Source of the DNA: Bugula neritina
Taxonomy: Eukaryota; Animalia; Bryozoa
Direction: 5' to 3'
NCBI GenBank assembly: GCA_964035545.1
Contig: OZ037773.1
Location: forward strand, 897,751 to 961,750
DNA length: 64,000 nt
Made by a program: the position numbers and the translations under genes. Position 1 is the stretch's first letter. Each line of letters opens with the position of its first letter. Under the pieces are notes generated by a model that saw nothing but the letters and a program-made list of their open reading frames with translations, made no database searches and was not told the origin of the DNA. Positions 860 through 39,862 of this stretch are shown here, in pieces.

Positions 860-868
860 ACGCTGAGT

Positions 869-2355: not shown

Positions 2356-2641
2356 TGTAGTGGAGCACGCAATACGCACATCCGCGTGTTCCCTAGCCAA
2401 TTAGAGATGCGTCAGGTGACAACCCCCAGCAATGCGTAACGAGAGAGTAGTCAGTAGAGAGAGCGTACTAGCAATCAGAAAGATGTAATACTATAATCCG
2501 TGTGCTTTCTTATATCATTTTACTAGTATGTAATTATAAATGAATCTCTTCTAATCTTATCACAAGCCCTATATTGCTGCAGATAACCAAGTCATAGTTA
2601 CAAGCTAGGAACCACGCATTAGTATTGTGTAAATCACAACA
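2356..2641 (+). repeat. 3' LTR of A (286 bp)
   Basis: Follows the PPT, has TG...CA ends and a CCAAT box; the right boundary is fixed by the empty site in the duplicated copy. Confidence 0.85.
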
Positions 2642-2900
2642 CAATTGCTGTGGTATAGATATTACTCAAAACTCAAAGGCAGGCTAGTTGAACAGTATAA
2701 GCCAAGTAGATAATCGATGATGGTAGGCAATTGAATATTGTTTGTTTTCAACAGTTAGTCATTCTTCAATTGTTACTGAGGTGTTATATATTGTGGTGAT
2801 TTATGGTATATCGGAAAGGCAACTCTTATAATTACTTTGCTACTCTTATGTGCATCGTCTAGGATACGCTAAGCTACACTCGGCCTAGTACTGCCTACAT

Positions 2901-5900: not shown

Positions 5901-6880
5901 GCAGCTACGAGCTTTAAACAGACAGTATGACTGACACTGTGACTTATTTGGAGGGTAAGTCCATTAAGGAAATTCTGTTATTTAGTTAGAATTTAGCCTA
6001 GTAGCCGAATTCAGTCTCACTTCAGCATAATGATCAAGTTGGTCTCCTGGCGACTTGGAGTTGACTGATCACTGAGATGGTTTATGGATACCAGGAGATT
6101 CTTGACTATCCAACTCAGTCGAAGTGTGGTACTGACAAGATGAAGCCTCCTACAAGAAAGTGTGTGATTTAGTACCGCTTACAGTTGAATCCATGTACTC
6201 TGTTGCAGGTGAGGCTCCGCCTGCATCCCCCGGGTTGCAGGCTTTGCTAGATGCCCGACCCCAAACTGGGAAATGCATTTTTTTCCACCATGAAGCAGGA
6301 GAGCGTGCACGTGCTACAGCATTTCACAGTGACCTTGTGCCCCTGTAGCGTCCACAATTTTTATAGACGCTATCCTCTGTCATCAAAGGAATCAGCAGTG
6401 CCATGTCGGCCACTTAGTGGAGGTAGATCAAGACTCCTATGCGCAATTCCAAGACTTGATTCTCCTCATGTATCCTCCCCATTGAGACGTGAGTCATTGC
6501 TGCAGGGGTTTCACAGTTCCTGGCCAGTGATACCAAGTGACTCAGATGCCACTGGTTCCAACTATGACCCTGTAGTCTATGTGTTTGATGAAGTACAGAC
6601 GTGTTCTCTTTGCGTGATGGTAACCCGTGCTGGTCGGTCAGCAGAAGAGTCTACTCAGCCACTTCCCTCTCAGTCCTCCCATACCCTTGCATTGCTCCGG
6701 AAGAGAAGGGAGAAATCAAAAACTACGACAGTCCCTAATGACACAATAGATGCTGAGATATGTACTAACTTAGAGAAACTACAACGATGCTGCACACAAC
6801 TGTGTAAGGAGCAGTGAAGGACAGCATCGAAACTAGCTAGGTTGCAGAAGCTCTGCAACAGATGGACTGCTAACTGAACA
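2901..6880 (+). mobile_element. Old, internally deleted Gypsy element C (5' LTR ~2901-3242, degenerate PBS, gag with CCHC knuckle, PR/RT/IN fragments, ORF3 remnant; no 3' LTR seen)
   Basis: CWGCGSRRHLLMSC zinc knuckle, FLLDTG protease motif, IPDFTEIAQPLNRLT, KLLPKFVG, HVLQHFTVTLCPC. Many stops and frameshifts. Boundaries approximate. Confidence 0.82.
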
Positions 6881-7761
6881 AAACGTACCTTAGCCTATAC
6901 AAAAAGTGATGAATAACTATTTCTTGCTACTATTCCCAGCAAAGACTGCTAGTGATGCTAAGAAAGGTATCCAGTCACAATTGCCATTTAGCAACACGAC
7001 GCAAGAAAACGAGTCCAATTAGCCTGTTTAAACGCCCTTCACTTTACACAGTGGCAGTTTGTGTTTGCTGCAACTACATTTAATACAATATATGACTCCG
7101 TTTCTTAGTACCGAATACGTATCATAATAATCTATTATAATTCTAGCAATGGATAACAAAAGCATACCTTTTGATTATCCAATCACTCCTGAGACTACTA
7201 CTGCAACTATCACAGCAATGAAAGTAGAAAGTATGCCACCTATCAGACCTCCCTTGTTCACAGCAGTTGAAGTGGGGGTTGTAGGGGGTATGGTGGCAGT
7301 ATCCTTCCACATTATTTCCCATTTGATAGTCACTGTCTTTGCTGAAACCGATTTAAAGACATTTTGAAGAAAAAATAAGTTTAAACTTAAAAAACATCTA
7401 CCACTAACATTAGCAAATTAGAAAAAACATTTACAATTGTCATTCATTTATATAAGTGCTAATTCTTACATAAGCCATTTTCAGCGGTACATTCAGCTGT
7501 TTCTGTTACACCGTTTGTCTGAGGAACTAGAGTCAGCTCATTGGATGATTCAGTTGTCACAACTCTATTATATGTCCAAGTGAACGTAGAGGGCGGTGGG
7601 TTGGCATCCACATGTTGGCTACAATCTAGTCTAGCATCAGAATGTCCAGGATTGAGTTCTTTCACAATTGGATCTGGATCATCAGCCTTTCTATCCAAGT
7701 CTACAAAAATGAAATTCATAGCACAGGGCTGTCTAACAGGAGGCCCCAGGACCGGATGTGG

Positions 7762-8066
7762 TGTTGTATTTTTCAGAATTAGGGTTGATGTGTAACCAAG
7801 AGAGTCTATTTGTTGCTAGAGACTTCACCAGGATTAGTCGGGTTGATATCGTTGTATTTTAACACAAGAATACATAATAAAAAGGATATAAAAACTGGTA
7901 ACAAATCACACGTCTATTTAATTTACTGCACTATCCTCAACTGACTAGTAGCGCGAAGCTAACTACTGCTACTCACTAGCAGCTTCGCTAATTGGCTGAG
8001 TACATTGTTCCGGGTCAATACGCGACCCTGCGTATTGTGCTGTTGGTAGCTCCACGAGCCACCACA
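7762..8066 (-). repeat. 3' LTR of B
   Basis: Direct repeat of 14889-15194; the PPT is adjacent at 8067-8080. Confidence 0.95.
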
Positions 8067-8344
8067 CCGCCCCCACCAGCAGAAAGCCCTCTTTCTGATA
8101 TAAAAATAATTTACAAGTAACTACGTACATCAGTGGACTAAACGGAAGCAAACATATAAAATGTATATACAAGATCCAAATTAGTTAGATACATATATAT
8201 AGATATAAAAAGAATACACAATAAACTAACATTAAGTAATTAGTAAGTCTTATTTACATATAGAGTACGTGCCACAGTCACGGCAGGGAAGGCCACAGAG
8301 AGGTAGTAGAGGAGTGAGGTGGAAGGCTGGGGAAGGAGCTCATA

Positions 8345-9469
8345 TTAATCCTGGGCTGCTCGTTTCATACGTTTGATAGACTCTTGTAGCGACCGGAGCT
8401 CACTGGATGCGGCATAAATGCGGGGGGCCAGTCTGTAAACCTCTTGTTCCAGCTCATTTGTCCTGGTCTCTACTTCTCGTAGGTTTTGGGCCAGAGGGGA
8501 TGAGCGGGAGAAAGTCTGCTGCTGCCGGTGTCTTTTTTCGTTCTGCGGACGGAAGTGGGAGAGGAAGTGTGTACGTCTTCGTGTCTACCCTCTGTAGTAC
8601 GACACGGGGGAGTGTATGTGGTCGACGTATGGGACTGAGAGGTGGGGAATTAGATGACTTCGTAGGTTTATCTACGGGTTCCGAGATGATGGGTTTAGGG
8701 GAGGGAAAGCCTTGCTCCAGGCGAGATAGCCGAGCTGGGTCGGTGATGAGAGGTCTGATAGCTTCGAGGAATGCTGAGTAAGATGATTTATCCACATCGT
8801 ATACGTGTCCCTGAAAGCAATGCATGGTGCGTTGATGACGCAGTAGATAGTCTCGGTTATAACTATATTCCCCGCAGGGGCAGAACGTTGTGATAAAATG
8901 CTGCGGCAAGTGGACTCCTAATCTACGACGAGTTGTAAACCGCCGTTGGCATTCACGGTTATTGTCATCCCCTCTATATTTCTTAATTTCTGTCTCTGTG
9001 GCAGGGGTAGTCCAGTTGGAGGTTGCTTCTAGCTGGTGTGGCAGCTGTCTGGTTGTGGAAGTTGCTGGGACCGGCTCTGGGTCCCACGCCATCTCTAGAG
9101 AAGGCATGCCCGGGGAGACAGGCGCGAGTGTGTCTACAAAAGTAGAATTATTGTCAGATCGTGGCGGACCTTTACAACATAATTCTAGTGACTGTCGACT
9201 GTTACTAGTCTGAGAGTCACAACTTTTTGAATGCACTCGAGAGACCAGTGAATCATGTGTGGACTGACCAAGAACAGTGTCTAGCTCCAGGTCTAACAGA
9301 CCGTCGGCCATTACAGCGTCCTCGTCGTCATTCACGTGAAACGTGGTCCCTAGTAATTCTGATTCAATCTGATGAATTAGCTCAGAATTTACCGGCATCG
9401 AGCCTGGTTCCATGGATAGGAATACAAGATTTATACTGGCTTACCTGTGAACTCGGTATTAGTGTCCAT
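8345..9469 (-). CDS. ORF3 of B (mini-exon 9469-9445, intron 9444-9134). A 9-nt deletion damages finger 1, and there is a frameshift before the coiled coil
   Basis: ACAG|GTAAG donor; CTGAC..TTTTGTAG acceptor; HLPQH..FCPCGEYSY..H..C; PRVVL at 8595-8609; ELEQEVYRLAPRIYAASSELRSLQESIKRMKR. Confidence 0.78.
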
Positions 9470-12400
9470 ACTCAATGTTCTTGGTAAGGTTGGAGCTAAT
9501 TGTAAAGTACTTCTGCCCTTGGCGATGTCAGCGTAAGAAAAGGCTGGGCATCGTTTCTGAGGCACGAGGTCGGAATTATTTGTTTTATGCGCATTAATTC
9601 CTCCCACTACTCCGCCCTCGCAAAAGTTGATATTTGCGTGGGGTTCACAACTCCAACATTTCTCCGTACGGGTTTCCCCTAGACTTCCATGGGTGCCGCT
9701 TCTAATGCAGTCACATACGAAGTCTTTTAAATATGGTGGGGGTCTCCTCGTACGCTGTCCCCGTTCTAGGGGGGTGACACGCTCGCCGGTTCATTAGCAG
9801 GGGCCTCTAATGGCAATTCTACTTCACCGTTAACGGTCACTTCTTCCTGTTCTCCGGATGGAGCCCCTCCCTCCGTGGGGGTTTGCACTTCCGGAACCGG
9901 CTCGGTTTCTGGAAGTGATGGAATCAGACTTGGCGGCGGCGGACGCGCCTCTGTTGGCAAAAGCTGTCGCTCTTCTTTCACCAAGTCTTCTTCCCGCGGT
10001 ATGACCACTTCATATTCAGGTCCATGCCGCCGTCGCCCACGCGTTGTTGTCTGCCTTCTAGGCTCTAACAACGGGGGGCTTCTCCCACTGCGTCGGGGCT
10101 AGCCCAATACGGTTTCAAGCGAGACTCATTCTGGATAGACACCTGTCCTGAGCGTTCAATCTTGTACGTATGATTGGGCATAGCCTCGACGATCACGTAG
10201 GGTCCCACGAACTTAGGCTGTAACTTAGCTGCCTGTCCGCGACGCCTACGGTAATTGACCATCCACACCTAATCCCCCGTCTGATAGAGGGGTGGTTCCT
10301 CGGAATCTTCATGTAGCACCTTCCACTGCTGTTCGCGCAGTATTTCGTGTGCGGCCTTCATCCGTTCCACTAGTTCACTGGCATGCGCATGAACCGAGTT
10401 GTCTTGCTCTGGAACGTGGTAGGTGAGATGGTCAAGGACACGAGTCTCTTTCCCGAGCATCAAGAGGTTTGGGGTTTCACAAGTACTGATGTGTGGGGTG
10501 CTACGGTATGCACGCATGACTTGCGGCAACACCGTGTATCATTCCTCCAGACCGCGTCCAAGGAGGAGGCTCCGGAGCGCATCACCTAGCATCCGGTTGT
10601 TGCGCTCCACCACCCCGTTACCTTGAGGGTGGTAGGGGGTGGTCCGGCTCTGATTTACTCCCCAGAGGCAGCAAAGGTCGCTCATCAGTTGAGACTGGAA
10701 TTGAGCGCCTTGATCAGAGTGTATCTGTTCGGGGAGACCGAAATAACAGAATACATGTTGGTCTAGCACCCGGGCCACGGTTGGAACCGACGCATCTGGG
10801 ATGGTCAGAGCGTCCGCCCACCTCATGAAGTGGTCGGTCAATACTAAGATCCAACTATTGCCTCTGGGGGTTGGAGGCATAGATCCGACCAGGTCTACAG
10901 CGACTACTTGCCAAGGCCTTCCAGCATATAGCCTCCGCCGTCCCGCTTCGCCAGGAAGACGGCCATGCTTACTGGCCTGGCAGATTTCACTCTGAGTCGG
11001 ACGTCCCGCTCCATCTGGGGCCAATACCACCGGAGTCGTAGTTTGGAGATCACTCTCTTGACTCCTGCGTGAGCCTGTTTGTGAGCGTCCCAAATCAGCT
11101 CACGGTGGATGGCAGTGGGGCAGACCACCCTCTTCCTCTCTGGGTGTCTGCCGCTGGCAGCTAAAGAAATGGTCAGTAGACCATCCTGCCCGATCCGCAG
11201 CGAGTCCCAACGCTGGCAGTATAGCTGGAACTCGGCGCATCCCTGCCGTATGCGTTCCTCGCTGAGTCGTCGCCCTTCCTTTTTGGCCCGATATATGTCC
11301 GCTACTACCCCAGGCAGCTCTCCTTGGAGCTTCTTCAGCTCCCGGACATCATCGGCCAGTACAGGATTGGCGCGGAAGTTTTGTACAACCTCCGGGGACT
11401 CGTCAACTTTCTGCCTGAGTTGACCCTGGTCCCAATCAAATTGTGCTCGGTGGTGAGCCAGTGTCTAATTCACATCGCGGGGAACCTCCGTCCCTCCTCT
11501 CGATATTGAGACACTGTTTGCAACCATCAGGTCGGCGGCTCAGCCCATCCGCATTGCTGTGTCTCTTGCCCGGTCGATGTTCGATCCGGTACGAGAACTC
11601 AGCTAGGATTTAGAGCCACCGGGCGACCTGACTGGAGGGTTTGGCCCTCTTGCACAACCAGATCAGCAAGGCATGATCCGTACGCAGCCGGAACTTCCTG
11701 CTGTATAGGTATGGTCTGAAGTGCTTCACTGACTTGATTACTGCCAGCAGCTCCTTGTGGGTAGTGCAGTAATTTCGTTCAGTGGGTGAGAGAGACTTGC
11801 TGTAGTAGGCTACTACTACTTCTCGGCCTTCCTGCACTTGAGACAGCACAGCGCCAACATTCTGGTCACTGGCGTCAGTGTCGAGGATGTACTCCAGAGC
11901 GGGGTCTGGGTAGGCCAAGATGGGTGCCGTCAGTAGGCAACCCTTGAGGCGATCGAACACTTCTTGTTCGACCGGGGTCCACTGCCCTGTCACCCCCTTT
12001 GCGGTGAGCCGGTTTAACGGCTGGGCTATGCCCGCAAAGTCTGGTATGTATTGTCTGTAATACCCTACCAGCCCCAAGAAAGCCCGGAGTCCGGTCAAGT
12101 CTTGGGGGGTGACCCAGTCTTCTATCGCCCGTACCTTTTTGGGATCCGTTGCCACACCGTTTCGACCGACAACGTGCCCCAGGTACTTGACCTCCGGCTG
12201 CAATAGAGCGCACTTGGAAGGTTTGAGCTTAAGACCGGCACCTCGGAGTCTCTCGAAGACCTCCCGCAGATGACTGACATGTGTCTCGAAGTCTGGGAAG
12301 ATCACGATGACATCATCGAGGTAGATCAGCAGTGTCTTCTAATGGAGCCCGCTGAGGACTTGCTCCATCAGCCTCTGGAAGGTGGCTGGGGCGGAAGTTA

Positions 12401-14034
12401 ACCCGAAAGGCAACACTTTCCACTTCCACAAACCGTCCCTTGTGATAAACGCCGCTTTCTCCTGGGCGTCGGGACTCAGAGGAACTTGCCAGTAGCCACT
12501 CAGCAAGTCTAACGTACTGAAGTACTTGCTGCCGGCTAGGGCATCCAATGACTCGTCAATACGAGGTAGAGGGTAAGCGTCCTGTATGGTTACGCTATTG
12601 AGTTTGCCGTAATCCACACAGAACCGCCAACTGCCGTCTTTCTTCCGTACCAGTACGACCGGCGAGCTCTACGCACTATGGGGGGGCTCTATGAGGCCGC
12701 GGACCAGAAGATCCCGTACTTGTCGGCTAACCTCCTTTTCTTTTTCTGGCCCCAGCCTGCGTGTGGGTTGCCGGACAGGGACTGTCCCTGCAGTCAGCGG
12801 TATTTCGTGTCTGACAACTCCAGTCAGCCCCACGTCATGATCTCCGCTGCTGAACACATCACCGTAGTCGCGTAGCAACTTCGCCATAGCTTGGTGTTCC
12901 TGGTTGCTCGCGCAGCCACCACAGGCTGTCTCATATAACTTCCGGATGTGTGTGGGGACCACTCCTCTCTTTTGAGTAGGGTGTCTAGGAGGTGTCTCCG
13001 TCGCATCACCCAGCGACGGGCCCACGTCCTCTTCCTGGACGGAGTGAATTCGGCCCAGCATTGACCCAGCTGGAAGCTTGATGGGCTCGGTAAAGGGGTG
13101 TTGACACAATGCACTAAGATCTCCCCTCGCTCAGTTAGTCGGTTTAAACTACTGGCGAGTTGGATCCTATCGTGCGCGCCTTCAACAACCCCGAGTCTTG
13201 CTATCCGGTTGCTGTTCACTCGGCAGTGGATAGTGGCTCTGGAGCGTCCGGGTACAGTACAGTTTCGAACTACCTGAACACCGCCCACCAAAGGACGCTC
13301 AAACTTATCCACACAGGCGAGTTCTCGCCCGCCCATCAGCACTGCCGACTTGCCAAAGTCTATGCGGCATTGGTGCTGCTTCAAGAAAGGCATTCCGAGG
13401 ATAGCATCTTCGTCCAGCTGGCTTATGACAAAGGTCTCTTGTACAGCCTGGTCTCGGACACGCCCAGAGAGCTCGATAATACCGTAGAAGGGAATACACG
13501 ACCCGTCTGCTAGGGTGCCATATTCTCCCGTATACGGTCGTACTCTATCCCTGTCTTGGCGGGGCAGTGCCTCAAAGACTCTACGACTGAGAAGGTTGGT
13601 AGTACAACCGGAGTCTAGCAGGAAGGTGACGGCGTTACCCGCCACCTTTACGGGTGGGAAGTAGCTCTCTCCGTGTGGTTGTACTTTCACCCCCCCGCAT
13701 GTGTTGTCCTAAGTGGGTAGGACGGCGGGGGTTTTACCCGTGGTTTACGGGGTTTCCGGCAGCGTGGTCGGTGCCGGCGGGGTTCGGAGCTCTCCACTGG
13801 GCCTTCTGGCTCTAATTTAGTGGCGGGCTCCTCTTCCCGAGGTAACCGGTGGAACCGGTTGGTGAGTGGCAGGGAGAAGGTACTCGGCCGCTGTGCGGGC
13901 CTGCTAGTCCTGCGTGGTACCTGCCACTCGAGGGGAGTGTACCGTCGTGTCCGTACGAACAGGCGGCAGCGTGTTCCACCCTGTTCCTTCAGTTTCGGCC
14001 CGCGGGGAGGAAGGGCGTCCGCGGGCCGTGACAG
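9431..14034 (-). pseudogene. pol: pol of B (PR-RT-RNaseH-IN), several stops and frameshifts
   Basis: [18 protein letters not shown] (12311-12322), LDTDAS, integrase core DHF..HSDQG..VERNN. Confidence 0.93.
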
Positions 14035-14855
14035 TTTAACGCCCCCTGGTGTTGGGGTCGTCCTGGCTGTCTATGGTCTTGACCAGCACTAGTCCAGCCC
14101 GGCCCCGCAGGTGCTGGGGGCAACCGCGGTTCCTGACCGGGGCCAGCGCTGGCAAGAATCGTTACCAGCTGTCCCAACATCTCTACCATACGGTCTACTT
14201 CGGCTTCCACAGGGGGAGCTTCGGGGCCCGCCGTAGCTCTGGCAGCACTGACTCCAACTGCTGGTGGGTTCCCTTGCGCTCGGTGCATTTGGGTAGCCAA
14301 CAGATAAGCTTCTCCAGCCTTTAAGGCATCCTCTATCGTGGTGATTCCTTTAGCTCGTAGTTGGTGGTGTAGGCCCAGGTCGTTCAGTGACTGGACGAAA
14401 GCGTCGTAGGTGTAACGCTCTTGGTGTTGTGCTGGTAGGTCACCATATGCAATTTGTGCCAGCTTCTTCACCATCGCGGCATGCTCTTGCAGCGAGGTCA
14501 GCGGGGTGCGGCACAATCTCTGTAACCGGGTCCTGGCGTCTATTGCGGAGATGCCAAAGCGGCCCCGCAACGCAGCCAATATCCCGTCTACGTCCGTTCC
14601 CATTCCGTACGGCTTGGCTTGCTCCGCCAACGCTCTCCACAACTGGATAAGGGCCACTCTATGCGGCCATTGTGCAATATCCATGACTTCTCTAGACTCC
14701 TGTATAAACTGTTCGACATCTTCTGACCCAGTAAAGGTGGGGGCTTTCAAGCGATATCGATAAGCTTCTTCTCCCACATGATTCACAGGAATAACATCAT
14801 TTCTTCGCTCACCTTCTACTGGGGGTGGTTGCATTCTAGCATTTTCAGTCTCCAT
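13989..14855 (-). CDS. gag: gag of B
   Basis: Open 288-aa ORF just after the PBS (LKAPTFTGSEDVEQF); closely matches gag of D. Confidence 0.9.
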   Translation of the reverse strand: METENARMQPPPVEGERRNDVIPVNHVGEEAYRYRLKAPTFTGSEDVEQFIQESREVMDIAQWPHRVALIQLWRALAEQAKPYGMGTDVDGILAALRGRFGISAIDARTRLQRLCRTPLTSLQEHAAMVKKLAQIAYGDLPAQHQERYTYDAFVQSLNDLGLHHQLRAKGITTIEDALKAGEAYLLATQMHRAQGNPPAVGVSAARATAGPEAPPVEAEVDRMVEMLGQLVTILASAGPGQEPRLPPAPAGPGWTSAGQDHRQPGRPQHQGALNCHGPRTPFLPAGRN

Positions 14856-14869
14856 CTTTGATGTACACT

Positions 14870-14887
14870 ATCCCACCGCTGCCACCA
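14870..14887 (-). promoter_or_regulatory. Primer-binding site complementary to the tRNA-Leu 3' end (TGGTGGCAGCGGTGGGAT)
   Basis: Lies 1 nt inside the 5' LTR; complement of the eukaryotic tRNA-Leu end ...AUCCCACCGCUGCCACCA. The same PBS occurs in D, E, F and the 27.6-kb fragment. Confidence 0.9.
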
Positions 14888-14888
14888 C

Positions 14889-15194
14889 TGTTGTATTTTT
14901 CAGAATTAGGGTTGATGTGTAAACAAGAGAGTCTATTTATTGCTAGAGACTTCACCAGGATTAGTCGGGTTGATATCGTTGTATTTTAAGCACAAGAATA
15001 CATAATAAAAAGGATATGCAAACTGATAACAAATCACACGTCTATTTAATTTACTGCACTATCCTCAACTGACTAGTAGCGCGAAGCTAACTACTGCTAC
15101 TCACTAGCAGCTTCGCTAATTGGCTGAGTACATTGTTCCGGGTCAATACGCGACCCTGCGTATTGTGCTGTTGGTAGCCCCACGAGCCACCACA
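14889..15194 (-). repeat. 5' LTR of B
   Basis: Direct repeat of 7762-8066. Confidence 0.95.
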
Positions 15195-16523: not shown

Positions 16524-18977
16524 CATATTACATCACTTGTATAACAATAATTAGCTAAACTAAAACCTGGTTTGTTGTTCACTAAATTTAAAATTTAATT
16601 TGCTTCTAGTTTTCTAGATAGAAATTTGGGGAAGCTTGTTGCACAACATTTAGACAGGTATATACTTACCGTATTCATAGACTGACACAGGATCTGCTCC
16701 TGTAGAGTTACAATCAAAGGTAAATTCTTCCCCTTCTATAATAGTTGCTGGTTTATTAAGTGTTATGCCAGTTGGAGCAACTGTAGAATAAAGAAATGCA
16801 CAATATATGTTTTCAAATACAGGTGCATTGATGTATTGTAAATTAGGTTAGGACTGCAGTAAGGGCCTATGCTATATCCTGGGTAAATTGTGTCAATAAA
16901 AAGTGTAAATTTAAATAGCAAAACTGCAACATTCCAAGTCTGCCTATGATAACAGTTATCTGAAACTACATGCCAACCAGATATCCTTATGTGATCCTGA
17001 ACAGAAAATTTCCAACAAAGGTATAATAAACTAAAATTTGTCCTCTACCAAACAAGGATAGGAAATATACTATTTTGATTTAACTAACCACCACCATCAT
17101 GGGAAAAGTTAAAGTTTATCACGTGATCTTTCCATGAGATACTGAACAGAATTTTTCAACAAAGGCCTAATATAACAAATATTATCCACTATCCATAAAA
17201 TGCATATCAATCACATTATTTCAATACCAATAATACCAATCTTGGGAACAGTTAAATTTGTCTATGAGGAAGAAGGAGGAAATAACTTAGAAATTATGAG
17301 AAGTTGTACTAGAAATGGCTAAAGTGGTATATAAAGGCTATCAGTGACCAAAGAAATTAGTTTGAACTTTGAAGTGTTCACCTTTGACTTCCATTGAAAT
17401 TTTTAAGGAGAGAACTTCTCCCACACCACCTCCTTCAAACCCTCTACAGTAGAACTTCCCTTTGCGTGATGAATCAGTTGCAGTGAGTTGTACAGAAAGA
17501 GTGAACCCTTCAGGTTTACCAACTGAGTTACAGTCTGCATGGCTGACTCCAGAACCTTCTATTCCAGAGACAGTAATAATTTCTGGAGTTGATGAACTCC
17601 GCCATACTGTCTCATCCTCAGAACTTGGAATACATCCACTTTGATAGATTGTACTGTCTCCATCAGCTTCATATCGTAACTGTAAAGTTCTCAGATCAGT
17701 ATAACCAGATGCTTCACATGTGAAGGTTATATTCTCATCTTTATAGAAGTCAGGTGAGCTTGTAGTAGTGTAGTTCATCTCTGTAGATGGTTGACCTAAA
17801 CATATGTCATTTTAATAGTTTAGCTCAATACTAATCCAATTGTGGAAATGAAAAGAAGAATTTTGGCCAACTCATTCAGACTTTTATGTGACACTGCCAT
17901 CACAAGAAAGGAACATCTACAAGTTGTGTGAGCATAAAAATCATATCTAAAAGGAATAGAAATGTGGTTACCAACATTCATTTAAAAGTAAGAACCAGAC
18001 TTATCAATCACTGAAAATTTATTCAGAAATATTCACTTACCAATTGTGTAGCTAAATAGTAATAATACTTTAAAAATGGTTATCCAGGGAAGTTTCATAT
18101 TCCTGAAAATAACAAATAACACTAAATAGTATAAATACTGGCCTGCATACTTAAATATATATTAGCTATAAAAACCAGCTAGGAAAAAATACTGGATAAA
18201 GAAATGTTATAAAATTAAAGAAATTCATAAAAGCAAACGCCATCATTATGATGAATGAAGTTAACAGCTGGAAATGTAGAAACTGCCTACAAATGAGAAC
18301 CAGTGAATTAGTGTGTGCAACAGACAGCAGGGTGGCCAGAATCATCTTGAGGTCACAGCAAATCAAAGCAAGCCAAGTCACTGGCTAACTAAGTTAAGTT
18401 TAGAGAATTGAAAACAATGACTGGAAAGAAAATAAATTGAATAGATTTCAAAGTTGGATAAGTTAGTTTTAATTTAAACTATTTTGAAATTTATGTCTAT
18501 CTACATAAATAGATTTACTGAAAACAATGATGAAGTTAAATTTAATATGTCATGCAATGCATTTCTCTACATGAATATTCTAAAGAGGAAAAGTTTTATT
18601 ACAAGTAATTCAGACCTGCAAGCCTAATAAAGTGATATTGTGGTGGCTCGTAGAGCTACCAGCAACACAATACGCAAGGTTGCGTATTGACCCGGAACGA
18701 TGTATTAGCCAATTAGCTAAGCTGCTTATGAATAATAGTAGCAGCTTCGCGCTACTAGCCCAGTTGAGGATAGTGCTGTAAATTAAATAGACGTGTGTAT
18801 TATTAACTGTTGTATATTAGATTTTATTATGTATTCTTGTATTCAAATATAACGATATCTACTCGACTTATCACGGTGAAGTTTCTCTAGTAACAAATAG
18901 ACTCTCTTGGTTGCACATCGACCCTAATTCTGAAAATCATAACAGTGGTGGCAGCAGTGGGATAGTGTACATCAAAG

Positions 18978-19844
18978 ATGGAGACTGAAAATGCTAGAAT
19001 GCAACCACCCCCAGTAGAAGGTGAGCGTAGAAATGATGTTAATCCTGTGAATTGTGAGGGAGAAGAAGCTTATAGATATTGCTTGAAAGCTCCCACCTTT
19101 ACTGGGTCAGAAGATGTCGAACAGTTTATACAAGAATTCAGAGAGGTAATGGAGATTGCTCAATGGCCGCATAGAGTGGCCCCTATCCAATTGCGGAGAG
19201 CGTTGACGGAGCAAGCCAAGCCGTACGGAGTGGGAACGGACGTAAACGGAATACTGACTGCGCTGCGGGCCCGTTTTGGCATCTCCGCAATAGACGCTAG
19301 AACCAAGCTACAGAGATTGTGCCGCACCCCGCGGACCTCGCTGCAAGAACATGCCGCGACGGTGAAGAAGCTGGCACAGATTGCGTATGGTGACCTACCA
19401 GCGCAACACCAAAAGCGTTACACATACAACGCCTTTGTCCAGTCACTAAACGACCTGGGCCTACACCATCAACTTCGAGCTAAAGGGATAACCAGAATAG
19501 AGGATGCCCTGAAGGCTGGAGAAGCTTACCTGTTGGCTACCCAAATGCATCGAGCACAACGGAACCCACCAGTAGTTGGAGTCAGTGCTGCCAGGGCCAC
19601 GACAGGCCCCGAAGCCCCCCCGCTGGAAGCCGAAGTGGACCGTATGGTAGAGATGCTGGGACAGCTGGTAACAATTCTGGCCGGCGCTGGCCCCGGTCAG
19701 GCCCTGCGGTTGCCCCCAACACCTGTGGGGCAGGGCTGGAGTAGTGCTGGTCAGGACCATGGACAGAAAGGACGACCCAAATACCAGGGGGCGTTAAACT
19801 GTCACGGCCCGCGGAGGCTCTCCCTCCCCGCGGGCCACAACTGA
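18978..19844 (+). CDS. gag: gag of D
   Basis: 288-aa ORF after the PBS; no CCHC knuckle. Confidence 0.9.
   Translation: METENARMQPPPVEGERRNDVNPVNCEGEEAYRYCLKAPTFTGSEDVEQFIQEFREVMEIAQWPHRVAPIQLRRALTEQAKPYGVGTDVNGILTALRARFGISAIDARTKLQRLCRTPRTSLQEHAATVKKLAQIAYGDLPAQHQKRYTYNAFVQSLNDLGLHHQLRAKGITRIEDALKAGEAYLLATQMHRAQRNPPVVGVSAARATTGPEAPPLEAEVDRMVEMLGQLVTILAGAGPGQALRLPPTPVGQGWSSAGQDHGQKGRPKYQGALNCHGPRRLSLPAGHN
19793..19836 (+). promoter_or_regulatory. Putative -1 ribosomal frameshift signal (G_TTA_AAC + 6-nt spacer + GC stem-loop)
   Basis: Stem GGCCCGCGG/CCGCGGGCC; the -1 frame is open from 19799 into the pol leader. The same arrangement is in B (~13996-14040, minus). Confidence 0.7.
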
Positions 19845-22800
19845 AGGAGTCTGGTGGGACACGCCGTCGTCTGTCCATACGGACACGACGGAACACTCCC
19901 CCCGAGTGGCAGGTACCACGCAGGACTAGCAGGCCCGCACAACGGCCAAGTACCTTCTCCCTGCCACTCGCCAACCAATTCCACCGGTTACCTCGGGAGG
20001 AGGAGCCCGCCACTGAAATGGAGCCGGAAGGCCCAGTGGAGAGCCCCGAACCCTGCCGGCACCGACCTCGCCGCCGGAAACCCCGTAAACCACGGGTGAA
20101 ACCCTCGCCGTCCTACCAATCTAGGACAGCACATGCGGGGGGGGGTGAAAGTACAACCACATGGAGAGCTATTTCCTACCCGGAAAGGTGGCCGGCAACG
20201 CCGTCACTTTCCTGCTCGACTCCGGTTGTACTACCAACCTTCTCAGTCGTAGAGTCTTTGAGGCACTGCCCCGCCCGGACAGGGATAGAGTACGACCGTA
20301 TACGGGGGAACATGGCACCCTGGCAGACGGGTCGTGTATTCCCTTCTACGGTATTATCAAGCTTCCTGGGCGTGTCCAAGACCAGGCTGTACAGGAGACT
20401 TTTATCATAAGCCAACTGGAGGAAGATGCTATCCTCGGAATGTCCTTCTTGAAGCAATACCAGTGCCGAATAGACTTCAGCAAGTCGGTGGTGCTGATGG
20501 GCGGGCGAGAACTCGCCTGTGTGGATAAGTTAGGGCGTCCTCTGGTGGGCGGTGTTCAGGTAGTTCGAAACTGCACCGTGCCCGGATGCTCCAGAGCTAC
20601 TATCCACTGCCGAGTGAACAGCAACCGGATAGCCAGGCTCGGTGTCGTTGAGGGCGCGCACGAAAGGATCCAACTCGCTAGTAGTTTAAACCGACTAACT
20701 GAGCGAGGGGAGGTCTTAGTGCAGTGTGTCAACCCCTTTACCGAGCCCATTGAGCTCCCAGCTGGGTCAATGCTGGGCCGGTTCCACTCCGTCCAGGAAG
20801 AGGACGTGGGCCCGTCGCTGGGTGACGCGACGGAGACACCCCCTCGACACCCTACTCAGGGACGAGGGGCAGTCCCAACACATCTCCGGGAGTTATATGA
20901 AACAGCCTGTGGCGGCTGCGCGAGCAACAAGGAACGCCAAGCGATGGCGAAGTTGCTAAGCGACTACGGTGATGTGTTCAGCAGCGGAGATCATGACGTG
21001 GGGCTGACTGGAGTTGTCAGACACGAAATACCGCTGACTGCAGGGACAGTCCCTGTCCGGCAACCCACACGCAGGCTGGGGCCAGAAAAAGAGAAGGAGG
21101 TTAGCCGACAAGTACGGGATCTTCTGGACCGCGGCCTCATAGAGCCCGCCCATAGTGCGTGGAGCTCGCCGGTCGTACTGGTCCGGAAGAAAGACGGCAG
21201 TTGGCGGTTCTGTGTGGATTACCGCAAACTCAATAACGTAACCATACAGGACGCCTACCCTCTACCTCGTATTGACGAGTCATTGGACGCCCTAGCCGGC
21301 AGCAAGTACTTCAGTACGTTAGACTTGCGGAGTGGCTATTGGCAAGTCCCTCTGAGCCCCGACGCCCAAGAGAAAGCGGCGTTTATCACACGGGACGGGT
21401 TGTGGAAGCAGAAGGTGCTGCCCTTCGAGTTAACCTCCGCCCCAGCCACCTTCCAGAGGCTGATGGAGCAAGTCCTTAGCGGGCACCATTGGAAGACACT
21501 GCTGGTCTACCTCGATGATGTCATCGTGATCTCCCCAGACTTCGAGACGCATGTCAGTCGTCTGCAGGAAGTTTTCGAGAGACTCCGAGGTGCCGGTCTT
21601 AAGCTCAAACTTTCCAAGTGCGCTCTATTGCAGCCGGAGGTCAAGTACCTGGGGCACGTTGTCGGTCGAAACGGCGTGGCAACGGATCCCGAAAAGGTAC
21701 GGGCGATAGAAGACTGGGTCACCCCCCAAGACTTGAGCGGACTCCGGGCTTTCTTGGGGCTGGTAGGGTATTACAGGCAATACATACCGGACTTTGCGGG
21801 CATAGCACAACCGTTAAACCGGCTCACCGCAAAGGGAGTGACGTGGCAGTGGACCCCAGTCGAACAAGGAGCATTCGACCGCCTCAAGGGCTGCCTGCTA
21901 ACGGCGCCCATCTTGGCCTACCCAGACCCCGCTCTGGAGTACATCCTCGACACGGACGCCAGTGACCAAAACGTTGGCGCTGTGCTGTCTCAAGTGCAGA
22001 AAGGCCGAGAGGTAATAGTAGCCTACTACAGCAAGTCTCTCTCACCCGCTGAACGAAATTACTGCACTACCCACAAGGAGCTGCTGGCAGTAATCAAGTC
22101 AGTGAAGCACTTCAGACCATACTTATACGGCAGGAAGTTCCGGCTGCGTACGGATCATGCCTCGCTGATCTGGTTGTGCAAGAGAGCAGAGCCCTCCAGT
22201 CAGGTCGCCCGGTGGCTCGAAATCCTAGCTGAATTTTCCTACCGGATCGAACATCGACCGGGCAGGAGACACAGCAATGCGGATGGTTTGAGCCGCCGAC
22301 CTGATGGAGGTTGCAAACAGTGTCTCAACATCGAGAGGAGGGACGGAGGTCCCCCGCGATGTGAGTTGGAGACGCTGGCTTGCCATGGAGCACCGTATGA
22401 CTGGGACCAGGGTCAACTCAGACAGGAGGTTGACTAGTCCCCGGAGGTTGTACAAAACCTCCGCGCCAACCCTGTACTGGCCGATAATGTCCGAGAGCTG
22501 AAGAAGCTCCAAGAAGAGCTGCCTGGAGTAGTGGCAGACATATATCGGGCCAAAAAGGAAGGGCGACGACCCAGCGAGGAACGCATAAGACAGGGATGCG
22601 CCGAGTTCCGGCTATACTGTCAGCGTTGGGACTCGCTGCGGATCGGGCAGGATGGTCTACTGACCATTTCTCTAGCTGCCAGCGGCAGACACCCGGAAAG
22701 GAAGAGGGTGGTCTGTCCCACTGCCATTCGCTGTGAGCTGATTTGGGACACTCACAAACAGGCCCACGCAGGGGTCAAGAGAGTGATCTCCAAATTACGG

Positions 22801-24415
22801 CTCCGGTGGTATTGGCCACAAATGGAGCGTGACGTCCGACTCAGAGTCAAACAGTGTGAGATCTGCCAGGCCAGTAAGCATAGCCGTCCCCCTGGTGAAG
22901 CGGGACGGCGGAGGCTATATGCTGGAAGGCCCTGGCAAGTAGTTGCTGTAGACCTGGTCGGACCCATGCCCCTGACCCCCAGAGGCAATAGTTGGATCTT
23001 AGTGCTGACCGACCACTTTACTAGGTGGGCGGATGCTCTGGCTATCCCAGATGCGTCAGCCCCAACAGTGGCCAGGGCATTAGACCAACATGTATTCTGT
23101 TATTTTGGTCTCCCCGAACAGATACACTCTGATCAAGGCGCTCAGTTCCAGTCTCAACTGATGAGCCACCTTTGCCACCTCTGGGGAGTAAATCAGAGCC
23201 GGACCACCCCCTACCACCCTCAAGGTAACGGGGTGGTGCAGCGCAACAACCGGATGCTAGGTGATGCGCTCCGGAGTCTCCTCCTTGGACGCGGCCAAGA
23301 GGAATGGGATACGGTGTTGCCGCAAGTCATGCGTCCATACCGTAGCACCCCACACACCAGTACTGGTGAAACCCCAAACCTCTTGATGCTCGGGAGAGAC
23401 TCGTGTCCCTGACCATCTTACCTACCACGTTCCAGAGCAAGACAACTCGGTTCACGAGTATGCCAGTGAACTAGTGGAACGGATGAAGGCCGCACACGAT
23501 ATACTGCGCGAACAGCAGTGGAAGGTGCGGCACGAAGATTCCGAGGAACCACCTCTCTACCAAACGGGAGATAAGGTGTGGATGGTCAATCACCGTAGGC
23601 GTCGCGGGCAGGCTGACAAATTAAAGCCTAAGTTTGTGGGACCCTACGTAATCGTCGAGGCTATGCCCAACCATACGTACAAGATTGAGCGCTCAGGACA
23701 GGTGTCTATCCAGAATGAGTCTCGCTTGAAGCCGTATTGGGCTAGCCCCGACGCAGTGGAAGAAGCCCCCCCGTTGTTGGAGCCCAGGAGGCAGACAACA
23801 ACACGCGGGCGACGGCGGCATGGACCTGAATACGAAGTGGTCATACCGCGGGAGGAAAACTTGGTGAGAGAGGAGCGACAGCTTCTGTCAACAGAAGCGT
23901 GTCCGCCACCGCCAAGTCTAATTCCATCACTTCCAGAAACCGAGCCGGTTCCGAAAGTGCAAACCCCCACGGAGGGAGGGGCTCCATCCGGAGAACATGA
24001 AGAGGTGACCACTAACGGTGAAGTAGAGAGGCCATTAGAGGCCCCTACTAATAAACCGGAGAGCGTGTCACCCCCCCTAGAACGGAGACAGCGTACGAGG
24101 AAACCCCCACCATATTTAAAAGACTTCGTATGTGACTGCATTAAAAGCGGCACGCATGAAAGTCTAGGGGAAAACCGTACGATAAAATGTTGGAGTTGTG
24201 AAACCCACGCAAATATCAACTTTTGCGAGGGCGGAATAGTGGGAGGAATTAATGCGCGTAAAGCAAATAGTTCCGACCTCGTGCCTCAGAAACGATGCTC
24301 AGCCCTTTCTTACGCTGACATCGCCAAAGGCAGACATATCTCACAACCAGCTCCAATCTTACCAAGAACGTTGAGTATGGACATTAATACCGAGTTCACA
24401 GGTAAGCCAGTATGA
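19799..24415 (+). pseudogene. pol: pol of D (PR-RT-RH-IN) with about 3 lesions: G-run indel ~20140, TAG at 22435, frameshift ~23395
   Basis: LLDSG, VYLDD, LDTDAS, H-x3-H..C-x2-C, DDE integrase core, GPY motif. Confidence 0.95.
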
Positions 24416-25252
24416 GTCTTGTATCCTTATCCATGGAAACGGGCTCGATGCCAGTAAATTCTGAACTATTTCACCAGATTGAATCAGAATTACTGGGAAC
24501 CACGTTTCACGTGAATGACGATGAAAACACTGTAATGGCCGACGGTCTGTTAGACCTGGAGCTAGACACTGTTCTTGGCCAGTCCACACATGATTCACTG
24601 GTTCCTCGAGCGCATTCTAAAAGTTGTGACTCTCAGGCTAGTAACAGTCGACAGTCACTAGAATTATGTTGTAAAGATCCACCGCGATCTAACAATAATT
24701 CTACTTTTGTAGACACACTCACGCCCGTCTCTCCGGGCATGCCTTCTCTAGAGATGGCGTGGGACCCAGAGCCGGCCCCACCCACTTCCACAACCAGACA
24801 ACTACCACCCCAGTTGGAAGCAACCTCTAACTGGACTACCCCTGCCACAGAGAGAGAGATTAAGACTCATAGAGGAGATGACAGTAACCGCGAATGCCGC
24901 CTATGTCAGCAGCGGTTTACAACCCATCGTAGACTGAGAGTCCACTTGCCACAGCATTACATCACAACGTTCTGCCCCTGCGGAGAATATAGTTACAATC
25001 GTGATTATCTACTGCGTCACCAACGCACTATGCAGTGCTTTCAAGGACACGTCTATGAAGTAGACAAATCATCATATCCCGCATTCCGTAACGCCATCAG
25101 ACCCCTCATCACCGACTCGGCTCGGCTGTCTCGCCTGGAGCAAGGCTTTCCCTCCCCTCGACCCATCATCCCTGAAACCATGGATAAGCCTACAAAATCA
25201 GCTAACTTCCCACCTCTCAGTCCTATACGCCAACCGCATGCACTCCCCCGTC
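24377..25252 (+). CDS. ORF3 of D (mini-exon 24377-24401, intron 24402-24712), both zinc fingers intact, C-terminus lost
   Basis: CRLCQQRFTTHRRLRVHLPQH and FCPCGEYSYNRDYLLRHQRTMQC; splice signals as in A, B and E. Confidence 0.8.
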
Positions 25253-27605
25253 ATTGTCCTACCAGCAGACAGTTCATATCAATAAGGTGAATAGATGAAT
25301 AGACACATTGCCGTTTGGTATTGCAACAGCTTGACTTTACTGCTTATAATTTGGATTACATAATCCTCAATGACTAAGATCATAAATACTTTCAATTCAT
25401 AACTCTGCTGTCTAGAAACCAGAGTTTGACGACCTGCAGTAATATAGTTATATTGGTGAGTGTGGTGTATGTGTGGCTTGAATGAAAATGAAAAGTATAA
25501 ACGGGAGTGTGTATGAGAGAACGAGAGGAAAGAGAGAGGAGAGATAGAGTGAATGAAGAGATTGAAGATTGTGCAGAATGCATTAAGCTATATGAGCGAG
25601 TGCTAGCCCACTTGAGACTTGACAATACCCCTACAAACAAATACCTCTACAGACTGATGGGAGCTAGAGTCACCTCGCAGCCAAGCCAAGCGACCTGTGC
25701 CTGTATGCTGGACTCGAGCTCACCTGAAGGCTACAACCCAATTATATTATTCGGTGAGATGCAATAGCTGAAAACTCCATATCCCGATATAACATGATGA
25801 TCCGATTTAAGGTTTGACTGCATTAAAATTCCCAAGTATGTTGTTGAGTCTCCTTAATTTATCTTTACTTTACCTAGCTTGTACAGGGGTTTGTAATTTC
25901 GATAGGAATACAAAATTGAATATGAATAACTATACCTAACTATAACTATAACTATAAGTCAATAACTATTAGCACTACTACTGGAATTGTGATTGTATTT
26001 ATAATAATTATCACCATCACAATCAATATTATTACCACAATGAACATCTTAATCAAAAATATAACATCATTACTACAGTTTTAGTTTATTATTATCTCAG
26101 TTGGGGTAGCACTTCCGCAGCAACTGAAATGCCTATAGAGAGGGAAGCCTCTTGTGACAACTTATATTAATATTACACCAGAGTTAGCACTTGTAGTTGT
26201 ACTTGTTACATTTACAGCAATTGCTGTTTGATCAGTAATCATAATGAGTAATTGCAATCAGTTATTCATATGTCATATATGATATAATGATTCATTACTA
26301 TTCAAATGGTGATCATAATATTAATCATAATGACAATCATAATGGATAATAAATATAAACTTCAATATGATAATGATTGAAATTTAAATGTGAAATTCAA
26401 AAAGAAAATGAAAATCAAATAATATCATTATTAAATTTAAATCAAAATGTCATTTGTCCTTGAAATTGAATTTGACGAAAAATATTTAAACTCATATTCA
26501 AATTTAAAGTAGTAATAAATTTGTATACGTTTACGTATTTTATGACAGCTTCCACGCACTACTTTACTAGTGCAACACACCAATCGACAACTAAACATAG
26601 TCACTAACTGTAAAGTGAGCACTTAACATAATTAATTAAAGTAGTAAAAATAGCATAGTGTAATGAATACCTGATAGTTGATCGAGAATTCAGTGTTGCG
26701 TTTAGTATAACGTTTCATTTAAATAAGATTGATTCCCGCCTACGCAACGACTGCTAGTTGTATTAATTAGATAGCAGCACGCCCTCGCCCATTGGCTGTG
26801 GTTTTACGCTTTGGTAGCCCGGATGTTCGTTGCAGACTGAACCTACAGCTAGTAGAATAGTAGCGCTCTAGCAATGCAAGTTTCATCGCATCAATAACAA
26901 TCAAATTTAACATGATATAATTATTAAAATGTAAATCAATTTGAATTGTGCATCAACAGCACACGCGAATCTGCTTCTTCTAGCTCACTGTCACACGGTG
27001 CAACTGCTGTAACCAATCACATTACTCTCAGACTGTGTCAGAGCCAGTCTTATTGCACTTACCATTACATCAACAAACAAATTTCTGGATACAAATACAT
27101 AATAGAGCATCAACCAATTAAATTAAGAGCTACAACTAGAAAGAGCTGAAAAGTTGACTTTAAAAATATCAGCACCACTGTCAGATCAGAGAATATACAA
27201 TATTTTATATTTTTGCAGAGTAGATACTGCACAGTAACTTGATGTATTTGCACCTTACAGAATGATATGCTAATAGTAATGGTGATTATGATTGGAACTA
27301 ATGGTTTGAATATATATATGTATAGCTTGAAAGTTTGTAGTAAAGTAGTGGAGAAGAAATTCAAACTTCATCATGGCCTTGCAAAATAATTCACTAGGTC
27401 ATACTCCATCATGGCCTTGTAAAAATATTTACCAGGTAGATACAACTGGTTTTTTCTAGCTAGAAAATGATTATTTTATTGATGAAAATAGAAGTGTTGA
27501 AACAGTTACATCCTCATGAAGACAGACATCAAGACTGAAACTATTTGCTAATGTAAACAATAGAAATGCCAAATAGTCTCATTACTATGAAGCTTGCAAA
27601 GATTG

Positions 27606-30290: not shown

Positions 30291-31590
30291 TACATGAGAG
30301 TTATAGCCTGGCCTTGATGGTCATCTGCTCTGGGTAATTAGAACAACAGTCTTCTAGTGAAGTTCAAGAAGGAAATGATTGATTTCCAGTTATCCATGGA
30401 GGGGTTAGTATGAGCTCTGGTGACATCATAGTGTAGTGAATTTACAGTTCACTATAAATTGTGAGTCCACTTATGCAAGGCCTTTCACCAGATTTCATAC
30501 AATTTGAATAGCCTTTATTATTGCGATAATTCACTCTGCCGCTACTGTTAACACTAGTCTGCACGATTACATAATAATAGAGTAACTTACACACAACTTT
30601 ACAGTATTAGAACTCGATTCACTCTGCTGGCTACGCTGCCTAACTAGCTTCCACTACACATTTGTAGCCCCGCCTACTAATTAATTGTTAGCCACATCTC
30701 ATTGGTCAACACGATGGTGCCATCCTGATGACACGATGTTGGCTGCATCATGTAACTGTCCGGGTGAGAAGTATCCTTTCGATATAACTAATGCATTACT
30801 AAAAACTATTACAATAGTCCGCACACAAGTACATGTAGTGATATTGTTGTAATTTGCACAATTACTATGCGTGGGTTTTTGCTTGCGTATTCAGTATGCT
30901 TTCTAACTAGTAATTACAAGGGTAGTAGCCAAATAATAATCTTTATTATCCACAATCAACACAGTATAAAACATTACATCAAATTACAGCAATACAATAG
31001 CCATCTAACTATGTGCATACACTTCGAGTTCTCGCTCACAACAACGTGATAATTGCTAACTACTCGGGAACTGTCACTGGGTCGGAAATTCACCTTCCAG
31101 TTCTTCTTTTTGGATAATACATTGGGGGCTTTTAGTATTCCCCGAACGGAGAGGAGATGATTCTACATTATGATACTGCGTGACCCACTACACCACCCCC
31201 ATCAGCAGAAAGCCCTACTTTCTGATAACACAAAAAACACACAAAAAAACAGTATAATAATATTGTAATGGGGCGTGGCTTACGCCTCACGCGTATCCCC
31301 CTGCCAATCAGAGAGTGATTGGCAACTATTGGATGAAGCCAAGCAGAACAATTGATTAGTTAGTTAGCGTATACTTGCCGTGATGTAAAGTAGCCTTGTG
31401 ATAATACTTATAGAGATTTTCACGCCATTTTTTATAGTTTATAATAAAGTCTTACGCACGAAACTATCAGTGAATTGCTTGTGACTAAATGCAGATTGCT
31501 CACTAGAAGCCCACATAAACATTGTGCTTTGCACAACAGTGGTGGCAGCGGTGGGATTATTCTAGCTGAGACAGTGAAAAGACGGAGAAT

Positions 31591-32385
31591 ATGACAGAGC
31601 ACACAACGAAGCACCCGGGAGGTAAGCCAGCCAATTTCTTGCATATGGAGGAGGTGTACAGAGATAAACTGACCGCTCCCACCTTCACGGGTGTAGAAGA
31701 TGTAGAGCAATTCATTGAAGAATTCCACGATGTAGCAAATGTCGCTCAATGGCCGCCACAAGTAGCCCTCCTCAAGCTGCGGGAAGTATTGACGGAGCGC
31801 GCTAGACCGTTTGGACAGGGACGGAGCGTGGCGGAAATATTCACTACACTACGGAGCCATTTTGGCACCCCCACTCTGGAACCCAGAGCCCGTCTACAAG
31901 TGCTACACCAGGCGGAAGGCACTCCGCTCCGCAACCACGTTGCCTTAGTGAAGAGGCTGGCGCGGAGCGCGTACAGCGACCTGCCAGAAGCACACCGACG
32001 GAACTTTACTCTCATTGACTTTATGCAATCCCTAAAAGATGTGGGTCTTTGCCATCAACTACAGGCAAAGGGAGTGACCACTCTAGAAAGTGCCCTACAA
32101 GTCGGAGAAGACTACCTCCAGGCCGAACAGTTACATACAGGGAAACCAAAAAGCACACAAGTCACCGCGGAGATAGCCCAATCACTCGGAGGGAAGATGG
32201 GCCAGCTGAGCACCAGGCTAAAACAGATGGCGAAGACTCTTACCAATGGCGGGCCCCCTAGCCGAGGACAACAGGGAGAGACCTCGGGGAAGACTACGCA
32301 GAGTAAGAGCAACAACAAGCCAGGGCCTCCCCGCTCCAGAGACCCCCAACCCAGAAAGAGGCCCCACGAGCAAAAGAGAGAATAA
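31591..32385 (+). CDS. gag: gag of E
   Basis: 264-aa ORF (LTAPTFTGVEDVEQFIEEF), homologous to B/D gag. Confidence 0.88.
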   Translation: MTEHTTKHPGGKPANFLHMEEVYRDKLTAPTFTGVEDVEQFIEEFHDVANVAQWPPQVALLKLREVLTERARPFGQGRSVAEIFTTLRSHFGTPTLEPRARLQVLHQAEGTPLRNHVALVKRLARSAYSDLPEAHRRNFTLIDFMQSLKDVGLCHQLQAKGVTTLESALQVGEDYLQAEQLHTGKPKSTQVTAEIAQSLGGKMGQLSTRLKQMAKTLTNGGPPSRGQQGETSGKTTQSKSNNKPGPPRSRDPQPRKRPHEQKRE

Positions 32386-36884: not shown

Positions 36885-36914
36885 TCCATCTGCATCCAAG
36901 CTTGAACGTTGAGT

Positions 36915-39642: not shown

Positions 39643-39862
39643 CTGAAAGAGCTAACAGTGTTAAGGATTATACACTGAAGTACCGCCGGCATGTACAGCC
39701 TGACAGGTGCTATGTTCAGTTAAACACTCGCGAGATTCAGGCTAATGAATAGTTGATCGAGAACACACTCGCTATGGCAGATTATTAGAATCTAAGTCGA
39801 CGTGTGTTCCCACCACTGTGTTTCATTATCGAATCTTTAGCTTGCTAACTGGTATAGTTAGA

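Follow-up and report, generated by a model that had tools for sequence, protein, structure and literature searches.

Spliced regulatory proteins are a hallmark of complex retroviruses. HIV Rev, MMTV Rem, HERV-K Rec and foamy-virus Tas are small nuclear regulators that are made from spliced RNAs and encoded near the 3′ end, and foamy viruses also use an internal promoter (in part PMC7828637). In the idefix-type errantiviruses, env is spliced to a Gag peptide, as described in bioRxiv 10.1101/2023.08.03.551782, and in C. elegans the CERV protein of Cer1 comes from a spliced mRNA that shares the Gag start (PMC10309623). Accessory ORFs in env-less gypsy elements are known from LTR retrotransposons with captured post-pol ORFs (PMC6431247) and from the sORF1/2 of MDG1 (bioRxiv 10.1101/2025.03.14.642691). 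The MDG1 sORFs show no splicing, and the sORF2-type products are membrane proteins; in the portions of these two sources that were available, no spliced zinc-finger ORF is described. We found no gypsy lineage with a spliced zinc-finger ORF3 in the open literature; Repbase/GyDB and subscription journals may catalogue one.

The elements analyzed here lie in a 64,000-nucleotide stretch of Bugula neritina DNA (the window) and carry a third ORF (ORF3) after pol. The original prediction was that ORF3 is expressed from the LTR promoter by an env-style splice from a phase-1 donor in the Gag leader. As with errantivirus env-F (idefix), described in bioRxiv 10.1101/2023.08.03.551782, a third ORF follows pol in a Ty3/gypsy element and a Gag peptide is predicted to be joined to it by splicing. 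Unlike env-F, the elements here encode a zinc-finger product that matches no env protein and has neither a signal peptide-like nor a transmembrane hydrophobic segment, and they have a second donor at the end of pol as well as an upstream ATG of ORF3's own. The likeness to CERV, judged by its description in PMC10309623, is that of an LTR-retrotransposon accessory protein with a Cys-rich motif, a candidate nuclear signal and a coiled coil. However, CERV is assembled from five exons, partly in the gag frame, and has H/M/G domains and a C4-type loop, whereas ORF3 stands on its own downstream of pol and encodes a C2H2-like finger. The retroviral regulators, likewise compared by description, differ in that the host of ORF3 is a Metaviridae element without env.

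The nest of elements

The window is a nest of LTR retrotransposons with an AT-rich background. Self-comparison and translated searches identified eight related Ty3/gypsy copies, and ORF3 follows pol in every lineage (D, B, E and their close relatives, F, and J). Pfam gives the domain order PR-RT-RH-IN for pol, whose best PDB match is the Ty3 RT-RH (E=2e-98). The LTR pairs of B and of E are 97% identical within each pair and have TG...CA ends; a 4-bp target-site duplication flanks each of these two copies, and a G-rich tract, the purine tract before the 3′ LTR, is seen. The domain order, RT match, LTR pairs and 4-bp duplications identify the copies, at the level of sequence, as Ty3/gypsy (Metaviridae). 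Troyka elements were rejected as candidates, because the CG ends and 3-bp duplications given in PMC12440569 do not fit.

Copy D occupies 18639-25251 of the plus strand and is 3′-truncated near 25251. Its 5′ LTR (18639..18944), the likely promoter, starts with TGTGG and is 85% identical to both LTRs of B. A primer-binding site, which we take to be of the tRNA-Leu type, follows at 18946..18963, and the same motif lies directly 3′ of the LTR in B, C and E and, with one change, in F. The gag ORF (18978..19844) has 157 homologues and no match in Pfam, pol (20149..24415) ends in an SH3-like tail and is broken into three open frames, and the main exon of ORF3 spans 24713..25290. Copies B (7762..15194, minus strand) and E (31264..38651, plus strand) are full length with both LTRs. 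Copy F (38895..42396, minus strand) is internally deleted; its 5′ LTR lies at 42396-42046, its ORF3 at 39642-38895 and its 3′ LTR at 31195-30845. E is inserted in the 3′ region of F on the opposite strand (30845-42396 of the window) and parts the 3′ LTR of F from its ORF3. G (57931..64000, minus strand) and A (1..2640, plus strand) are 3′ parts, and J1 (2890..7200) and J2 (51720..57400), both on the plus strand, belong to a distant lineage that has the ORF3 finger. Because D and B are 90% identical, the donors of D, B, E and F represent three lineages and not four independent cases. Metagenome, viral and genome contigs yielded no ORF3, and the primer-binding-site pattern gave no viral matches and two unrelated metagenome matches. 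The nucleotide tests therefore rest on the copies in the window.

A second version of the block that contains the 3′ end of J and copy B lies some 50 kb off and is 97% identical to it, or 86-91% in the J parts (6264-13800 against 56432-64000 and 2667-6051 against 51614-56201), which suggests a segmental duplication of an already nested region. The window also holds a broken non-LTR (LINE-type) element at 46839-50156 with an endonuclease, an RT and a C-terminal finger-like motif, and a long inverted repeat at 44021-45846 (about 790 nt, 93%) that is foldback- or MITE-like, with 8-nt tandem arrays at its outer ends. Two smaller remnants were found at 27605-27974 and 46344-46593 (minus strand): an LTR-PBS-Gag-start fragment, which breaks off 12 nt before it would reach the leader donor, and a piece of gag that stands alone. 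ARAGORN called a tRNA-Asn at 63910-64000, inside the gag-pol region of copy G at the window edge; the call is probably spurious.

Donor and acceptor signals

In copy D, the Gag start at ATG 18978 is followed by 14 codons plus one nucleotide (18978..19020, 43 nt), the predicted first coding exon of an ORF3 mRNA, and then by the phase-1 donor AAG|GTGAGC (GT-side 19021..19026). This agrees with what had been proposed, as do the same donor after 14813 in B and, in E, the donor GAG|GTAAGC after 31621, 10 codons plus one nucleotide from ATG 31591. For F the proposal was only partly right. The site AAG|GTAGGA after 41998 does exist in phase 1, 16 nt from a GTG, but it scores 4.5 bits (rank 3), and the homologous donor is AAG|GTGAGG after 41968, also in phase 1, with 6.9 bits and rank 1 of 204. 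The leader of F is decayed, and F-type Gag homologues place the matching Gly at residue 15, which corresponds to the 41968 site.

Donors and acceptors were scored with matrices of approximate metazoan frequencies, which may not be those of the host. By these scores, the leader donor ranks second among the GT sites of D (367 sites), B (424) and E (375). When each site aligned in D, B and E was scored by its weakest copy, the donor after 19020 was the best of 165 GT sites and a donor at the end of pol, after 24401, was second. To this we added a recoding test in which codons were redrawn with the protein kept: an equally strong phase-1 leader donor appeared in 5.2% (D), 3.6% (E) and 4.9% (F) of 20,000 trials each, and a comparable phase-1 donor was present in none of 104 other 75-nt coding windows. 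These values, about 0.04-0.05 per lineage, argue against the view that no splicing takes place, in which the motifs would be by-products of constraint on protein or RNA structure and ORF3 would be translated from its own ATG, for example by re-initiation.

The Gag proteins give a further view of the leader site. Among the 120 listed of the 157 homologues, 76 show a recognizable capsid motif near the start, and 66 of these have a leader of at least 28 residues: 53 of a main group, 11 of the J type and 2 that were set aside. Gly-Glu stands at the donor position in 46 of the 53 main-group leaders, while leader length and flanks vary; of the other seven, one has no residue at that position and six carry Ser, Asp or Val instead. 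In copy E, Gly-Lys codons preserve the GTRAG motif. Neither Gly-Glu nor Gly-Lys occurs in the 11 J-type leaders, and neither J1 nor J2 has a top-ranked leader donor, although the J lineage has ORF3. Selection on a function of Gag, and not on splicing, could account for the Gly-Glu. Every residue found in front of the leader Gly can be encoded by a codon that ends in A, but with six residue types this was set aside as too weak.

The second donor, CAG|GTAAGC (24402..24407), is in phase 1 four codons before the pol stop and ranks first of 367 in D. It is the strongest donor in D, B (after 9445), G (after 59623) and A (after 893), rank 2 in F (after 40667) and J1 (after 5954), and rank 5 in E (after 36939). 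J2 has a decayed version of the site, and phase 1 holds for D, B, G, E, A and J1. An AGT-ATG directly upstream would give a mini-exon of 8 codons plus one nucleotide (24377..24401), with the ATG 25 nt before the donor in all five close copies (D, B, G, E, A) and 28 nt before it in J1. In the recoding test, this donor gave 0.02-0.08 per lineage, which likewise argues against an absence of splicing.

These features also bear on an internal promoter in the tail of pol. In such a foamy-virus-like arrangement, ORF3 would come mainly from the 3′ end of the element, either unspliced and long, from ATG 24433, or spliced from the pol-end donor; the leader donor would then play a minor part or owe its conservation to Gag. 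The rank of the pol-end donor, the AGT-ATG at a nearly constant distance from it, and a J lineage that has this donor without a strong leader donor all speak for it. However, it leaves the top conservation of the leader donor unexplained, F lacks the mini-exon ATG, and no shared TATA-like motif was seen by eye in the alignment of the pol tail. We consider this origin of ORF3 unlikely.

The phase of the pol-end donor within the pol frame, four codons before the stop, also allows a splice that drops the stop and appends the zinc finger to integrase as a targeting domain, comparable to the chromodomains of chromoviruses. In one of 140 distant ORF3 representatives, P0303, the finger is preceded in frame by an integrase-tail motif, and in P0336 a retroviral-type protease shares its frame with the finger; these proteins may be natural fusions or deleted copies. 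On the other hand, an RNA spliced in this way would retain the packaging signals, so that intron-less copies would be expected, and all five close copies keep the intron; in addition, no RT or integrase core was found in the 29 longer representatives scanned. A search for homologues of the pol tail returned three proteins, none informative on the C-terminus. A pol-to-ORF3 fusion is among the less likely readings, and we regard it as improbable.

Several other sites were considered and rejected: a middle exon in the pol tail through an in-frame acceptor at 23937, which is present only in D, B and G; an acceptor at 24583, which is in phase 0; and a recursive AG|GT at the pol end, which fails in E and F. 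The pol tails of E, A and F also align in a third donor-like GTGAG, at 36533, 493 and 41027, respectively, which D and B have lost.

The ORF3 acceptor of D consists of a branch point (CTAAC), a short pyrimidine tract and TAG at 24688..24712, and the exon begins at 24713. Of the 197 AG sites that align across D, B and E it scores best, and each of these copies has the branch-point motif. No other 25-nt window of the alignment is as conserved as 24683-24707, where D, E and A share a nucleotide identity of 0.84; at 24764-24836 the identity drops to 0.12-0.28. Within a single element the acceptor is of only moderate strength: it comes fifth among 507 sites in D and does not reach the top 8 of 545 in E. 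The expectation that the acceptor shares the phase of the leader donors was borne out in all six copies, where it is phase 1 in the ORF3 frame: 24713 (D), 9133 (B), 37256 (E), 59311 (G), 1211 (A) and 39642 (F). Among the 53 of 70 ORF3 homologues that cover the acceptor, the Asp after it is present in 50, and the residue before this Asp is Leu in 29, Ser in 13, Val in 10 and Ile in 1, each with a YAG-compatible codon.

Although the ORF3 of copy F shares only about 32% identity and its frame is closed shortly upstream of the acceptor, F has retained all four features of the site: branch point, pyrimidine tract, AG and phase. Two F-type distant representatives have a matching acceptor peptide. 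The retention of the acceptor in F without the upstream frame, and the agreement in phase between the top conserved donor and the top conserved acceptor, speak against an absence of splicing. Between the pol end and ORF3 of F, the minus-strand stretch 40200-40500 is AT-rich with a short internal repeat and is possibly a secondary insertion; it contains a very strong acceptor-like site at 40461.

RNA contigs provide no evidence either way on the splice. One RNA run (share 0.05) gave 21 short contigs on D, none of which links a donor to the acceptor, and in the binned depths no contig covered either donor; over D to E, the same run gave 25 contigs, whose one joint is unrelated, and the run may contain carried-over DNA. 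In a run of unknown kind, no GT-AG was present among the joints listed (15 of 107). An account without splicing can point to the missing junction in these contigs, whose depths left both donors uncovered, and to an ORF3 that is open from a conserved ATG; it is less likely than the spliced reading, and we give it little credence.

The ORF3 product and its probable longer form

The 93 codons from ATG 24433 to the acceptor (24433..24712) lie inside the predicted intron and contain no stops, while the other frames have 4-15 stops each. In this stretch dN/dS is 0.34-0.38 between lineages, and the indels after the ATG are multiples of three. The ATG is 11-17 nt 3′ of the pol-frame stop. An LLD-x-D...PY motif of this part recurs in five distant representatives, with one further doubtful match, and 29 of 70 ORF3 homologues start about 89 codons before the acceptor. 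In the three proteins checked, the first 60 residues carry a net charge between −7 and −10. Because the stretch that the splice removes is coding from a conserved ATG, a longer acidic isoform of ORF3 probably exists. No conserved acceptor that could serve ATG 24433 was found in the alignment of D, B and E, and thus the long form would arise from an internal start or from re-initiation after the pol-frame stop. The coding constraint on this part and its maintenance in distant relatives are also what an internal promoter in the pol tail would lead one to expect.

Synonymous divergence is 0.47 in the upstream part, compared with 0.84-0.89 in the finger, so that a second constraint, at the nucleotide level, overlaps the coding one. 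Overlapping or antisense coding in 24433-24712 was rejected, since every other frame has stops. The 311-nt stretch between the pol end and the acceptor folds better than its shuffles (z −3.15 in D and −4.43 in E), and two-sided changes occur in 10 of 92 pairs (5 sequences from 3 lineages).

These observations are of interest for a rival account in which the same splice takes place but the product acts on RNA, in the manner of Rev, Rec or CERV, binding the intron-containing genomic RNA and licensing its nuclear export, with the structured stretch between pol and the acceptor perhaps as its target. An element with strong splice sites must export its unspliced RNA, and CERV does so from a spliced mRNA (PMC10309623). 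The Arg/Ser/Pro-rich basic patch of ORF3 is consistent with such a role, as are the folding of the 311-nt stretch, its low synonymous divergence and its two-sided changes. However, windows of the same size fold at least as well in 6 of 17 cases in D and 9 of 17 in E, and the covariation comes from five sequences of three lineages. Because other windows fold as well, the folding gives this account little extra support, and the folding energies do not support an RRE-like element: the intron fold is stable and shared, but not above the rest of the element. We regard RNA export as possible, if somewhat doubtful. The RNA of the element is unusually structured overall; in D the strongest windows are 22389-22588 at the boundary of RH and IN (z −6.9) and 24091-24401 in the tail of pol, immediately ahead of the pol-end donor (z −5.7).

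Intact homologues of ORF3 have about 365 residues. They begin with an acidic N-terminus and a variable linker, followed by the motif CxxC-x12-HxxxH, a second Cys/His cluster, a Pro/Ser/Arg-rich basic patch and a C-terminal helix. The main exon of D contains the linker, the C2H2-like finger and the second Cys/His motif. The CxxC-x12-HxxxH motif is nearly invariant; matches to the Pfam C2H2 models are weak and below the curated cut-off (16 of 38 members), and the best PDB sequence match is a Sal-like finger (E=6e-4). A structural model of a 257-residue member has a mean pLDDT of 79.7, with high values over the finger domain and over a helix of 49 residues (208-256). Fold searches of the PDB and of a viral library gave no match at E<0.001, and the top PDB hits were DNA-bound fingers. 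DNA binding by ORF3 is therefore described here as putative. The basic, nuclear-signal-like patch is present in 20 of 20 intact homologues.

The wider family was sampled by a profile search, which returned 297 representatives (50% identity) at E<0.001 and 108 at E<1e-10; the weakest include ordinary multi-finger proteins, and the best 150 of the 297 were listed. The Atlas neighbours of ORF3 are generic C2H2 proteins only, at 0.90 or less. None of 222 ORF3-like database proteins begins with a Gag leader, apart from one 8/16 chance match. These missing starts are weak counter-evidence to the leader splice, because the database proteins are mostly genomic gene calls.

The product is where the env analogy fails. 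No hydrophobic segment was found in ORF3: the maximum 19-residue hydropathy is 0.45-0.96 in the 20 intact homologues and 0.56-1.33 in the five copies of the window. Pfam (38 members), PDB sequences and folds gave no env family. Because ORF3 has no hydrophobic segment, it lacks the env features given in bioRxiv 10.1101/2023.08.03.551782. In place of an envelope, a C2H2-like finger, a basic patch and a coiled coil were found.

A probable spliced accessory protein

Taken together, conservation of the signals supports the leader-to-3′ route that had been proposed, and it is the envelope-like product that has to be given up. The route is, moreover, not the only candidate, since the second donor at the pol end and the ATG of ORF3 itself offer others. 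We think it quite likely, from the signals in the DNA, that the leader-to-ORF3 splice is used, and the splice architecture as a whole is likely to be real, functional and in the service of a non-env accessory protein. On balance, we lean towards a model in which the LTR transcript would be spliced from leader to ORF3 into a subgenomic mRNA whose zinc-finger product is a predicted nuclear regulator of element expression rather than an envelope protein. A share of the LTR transcripts would have the leader donor joined to 24713, much as happens for env of idefix-type elements. The resulting protein would start with 10-15 Gag residues, continue with the finger, the Ser/Pro-rich basic patch and the coiled coil, and omit the acidic N-terminal 93 codons of the longer own-ATG isoform.

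How such a regulator might act is a more tentative matter. The two isoforms may form a feedback circuit on the LTR, in which the long acidic form would act as an LTR-binding activator, whereas the spliced form, which has the finger and coiled coil and lacks the acidic part, would damp the LTR. The pol-end donor, with the mini-exon ATG before it, would then open another way into this exon, starting from a shorter internal transcript. We favor an activator/damper pair because the cut falls where the acidic region is dropped. The acidic region presumably resembles acidic activation domains, and this reading rests on its charge and that likeness. RNA export in the manner of Rev or CERV is a close rival of this feedback model. 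A broader extension, which we consider rather unlikely, is that these elements represent a widespread and undescribed class of "complex" gypsy elements that have their own zinc-finger transcription regulator in two isoforms, a long acidic activator and a spliced form without the acidic domain that two alternative phase-1 mini-exons, at the Gag start and at the pol end, would feed; splicing would toggle between activation and self-repression.

By analogy, the best reading is that of a retrotransposon with a spliced nuclear accessory protein that would work like CERV or the retroviral regulators through a different domain. The exact predicted junctions make the lineage testable with one RNA-seq data set, and the finger of ORF3 defines a domain family that has no Pfam model of its own. 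CERV is the one LTR-retrotransposon example in the literature we found, and this lineage would be a second and apparently unrelated case, in which an env-style splice need not imply an envelope.
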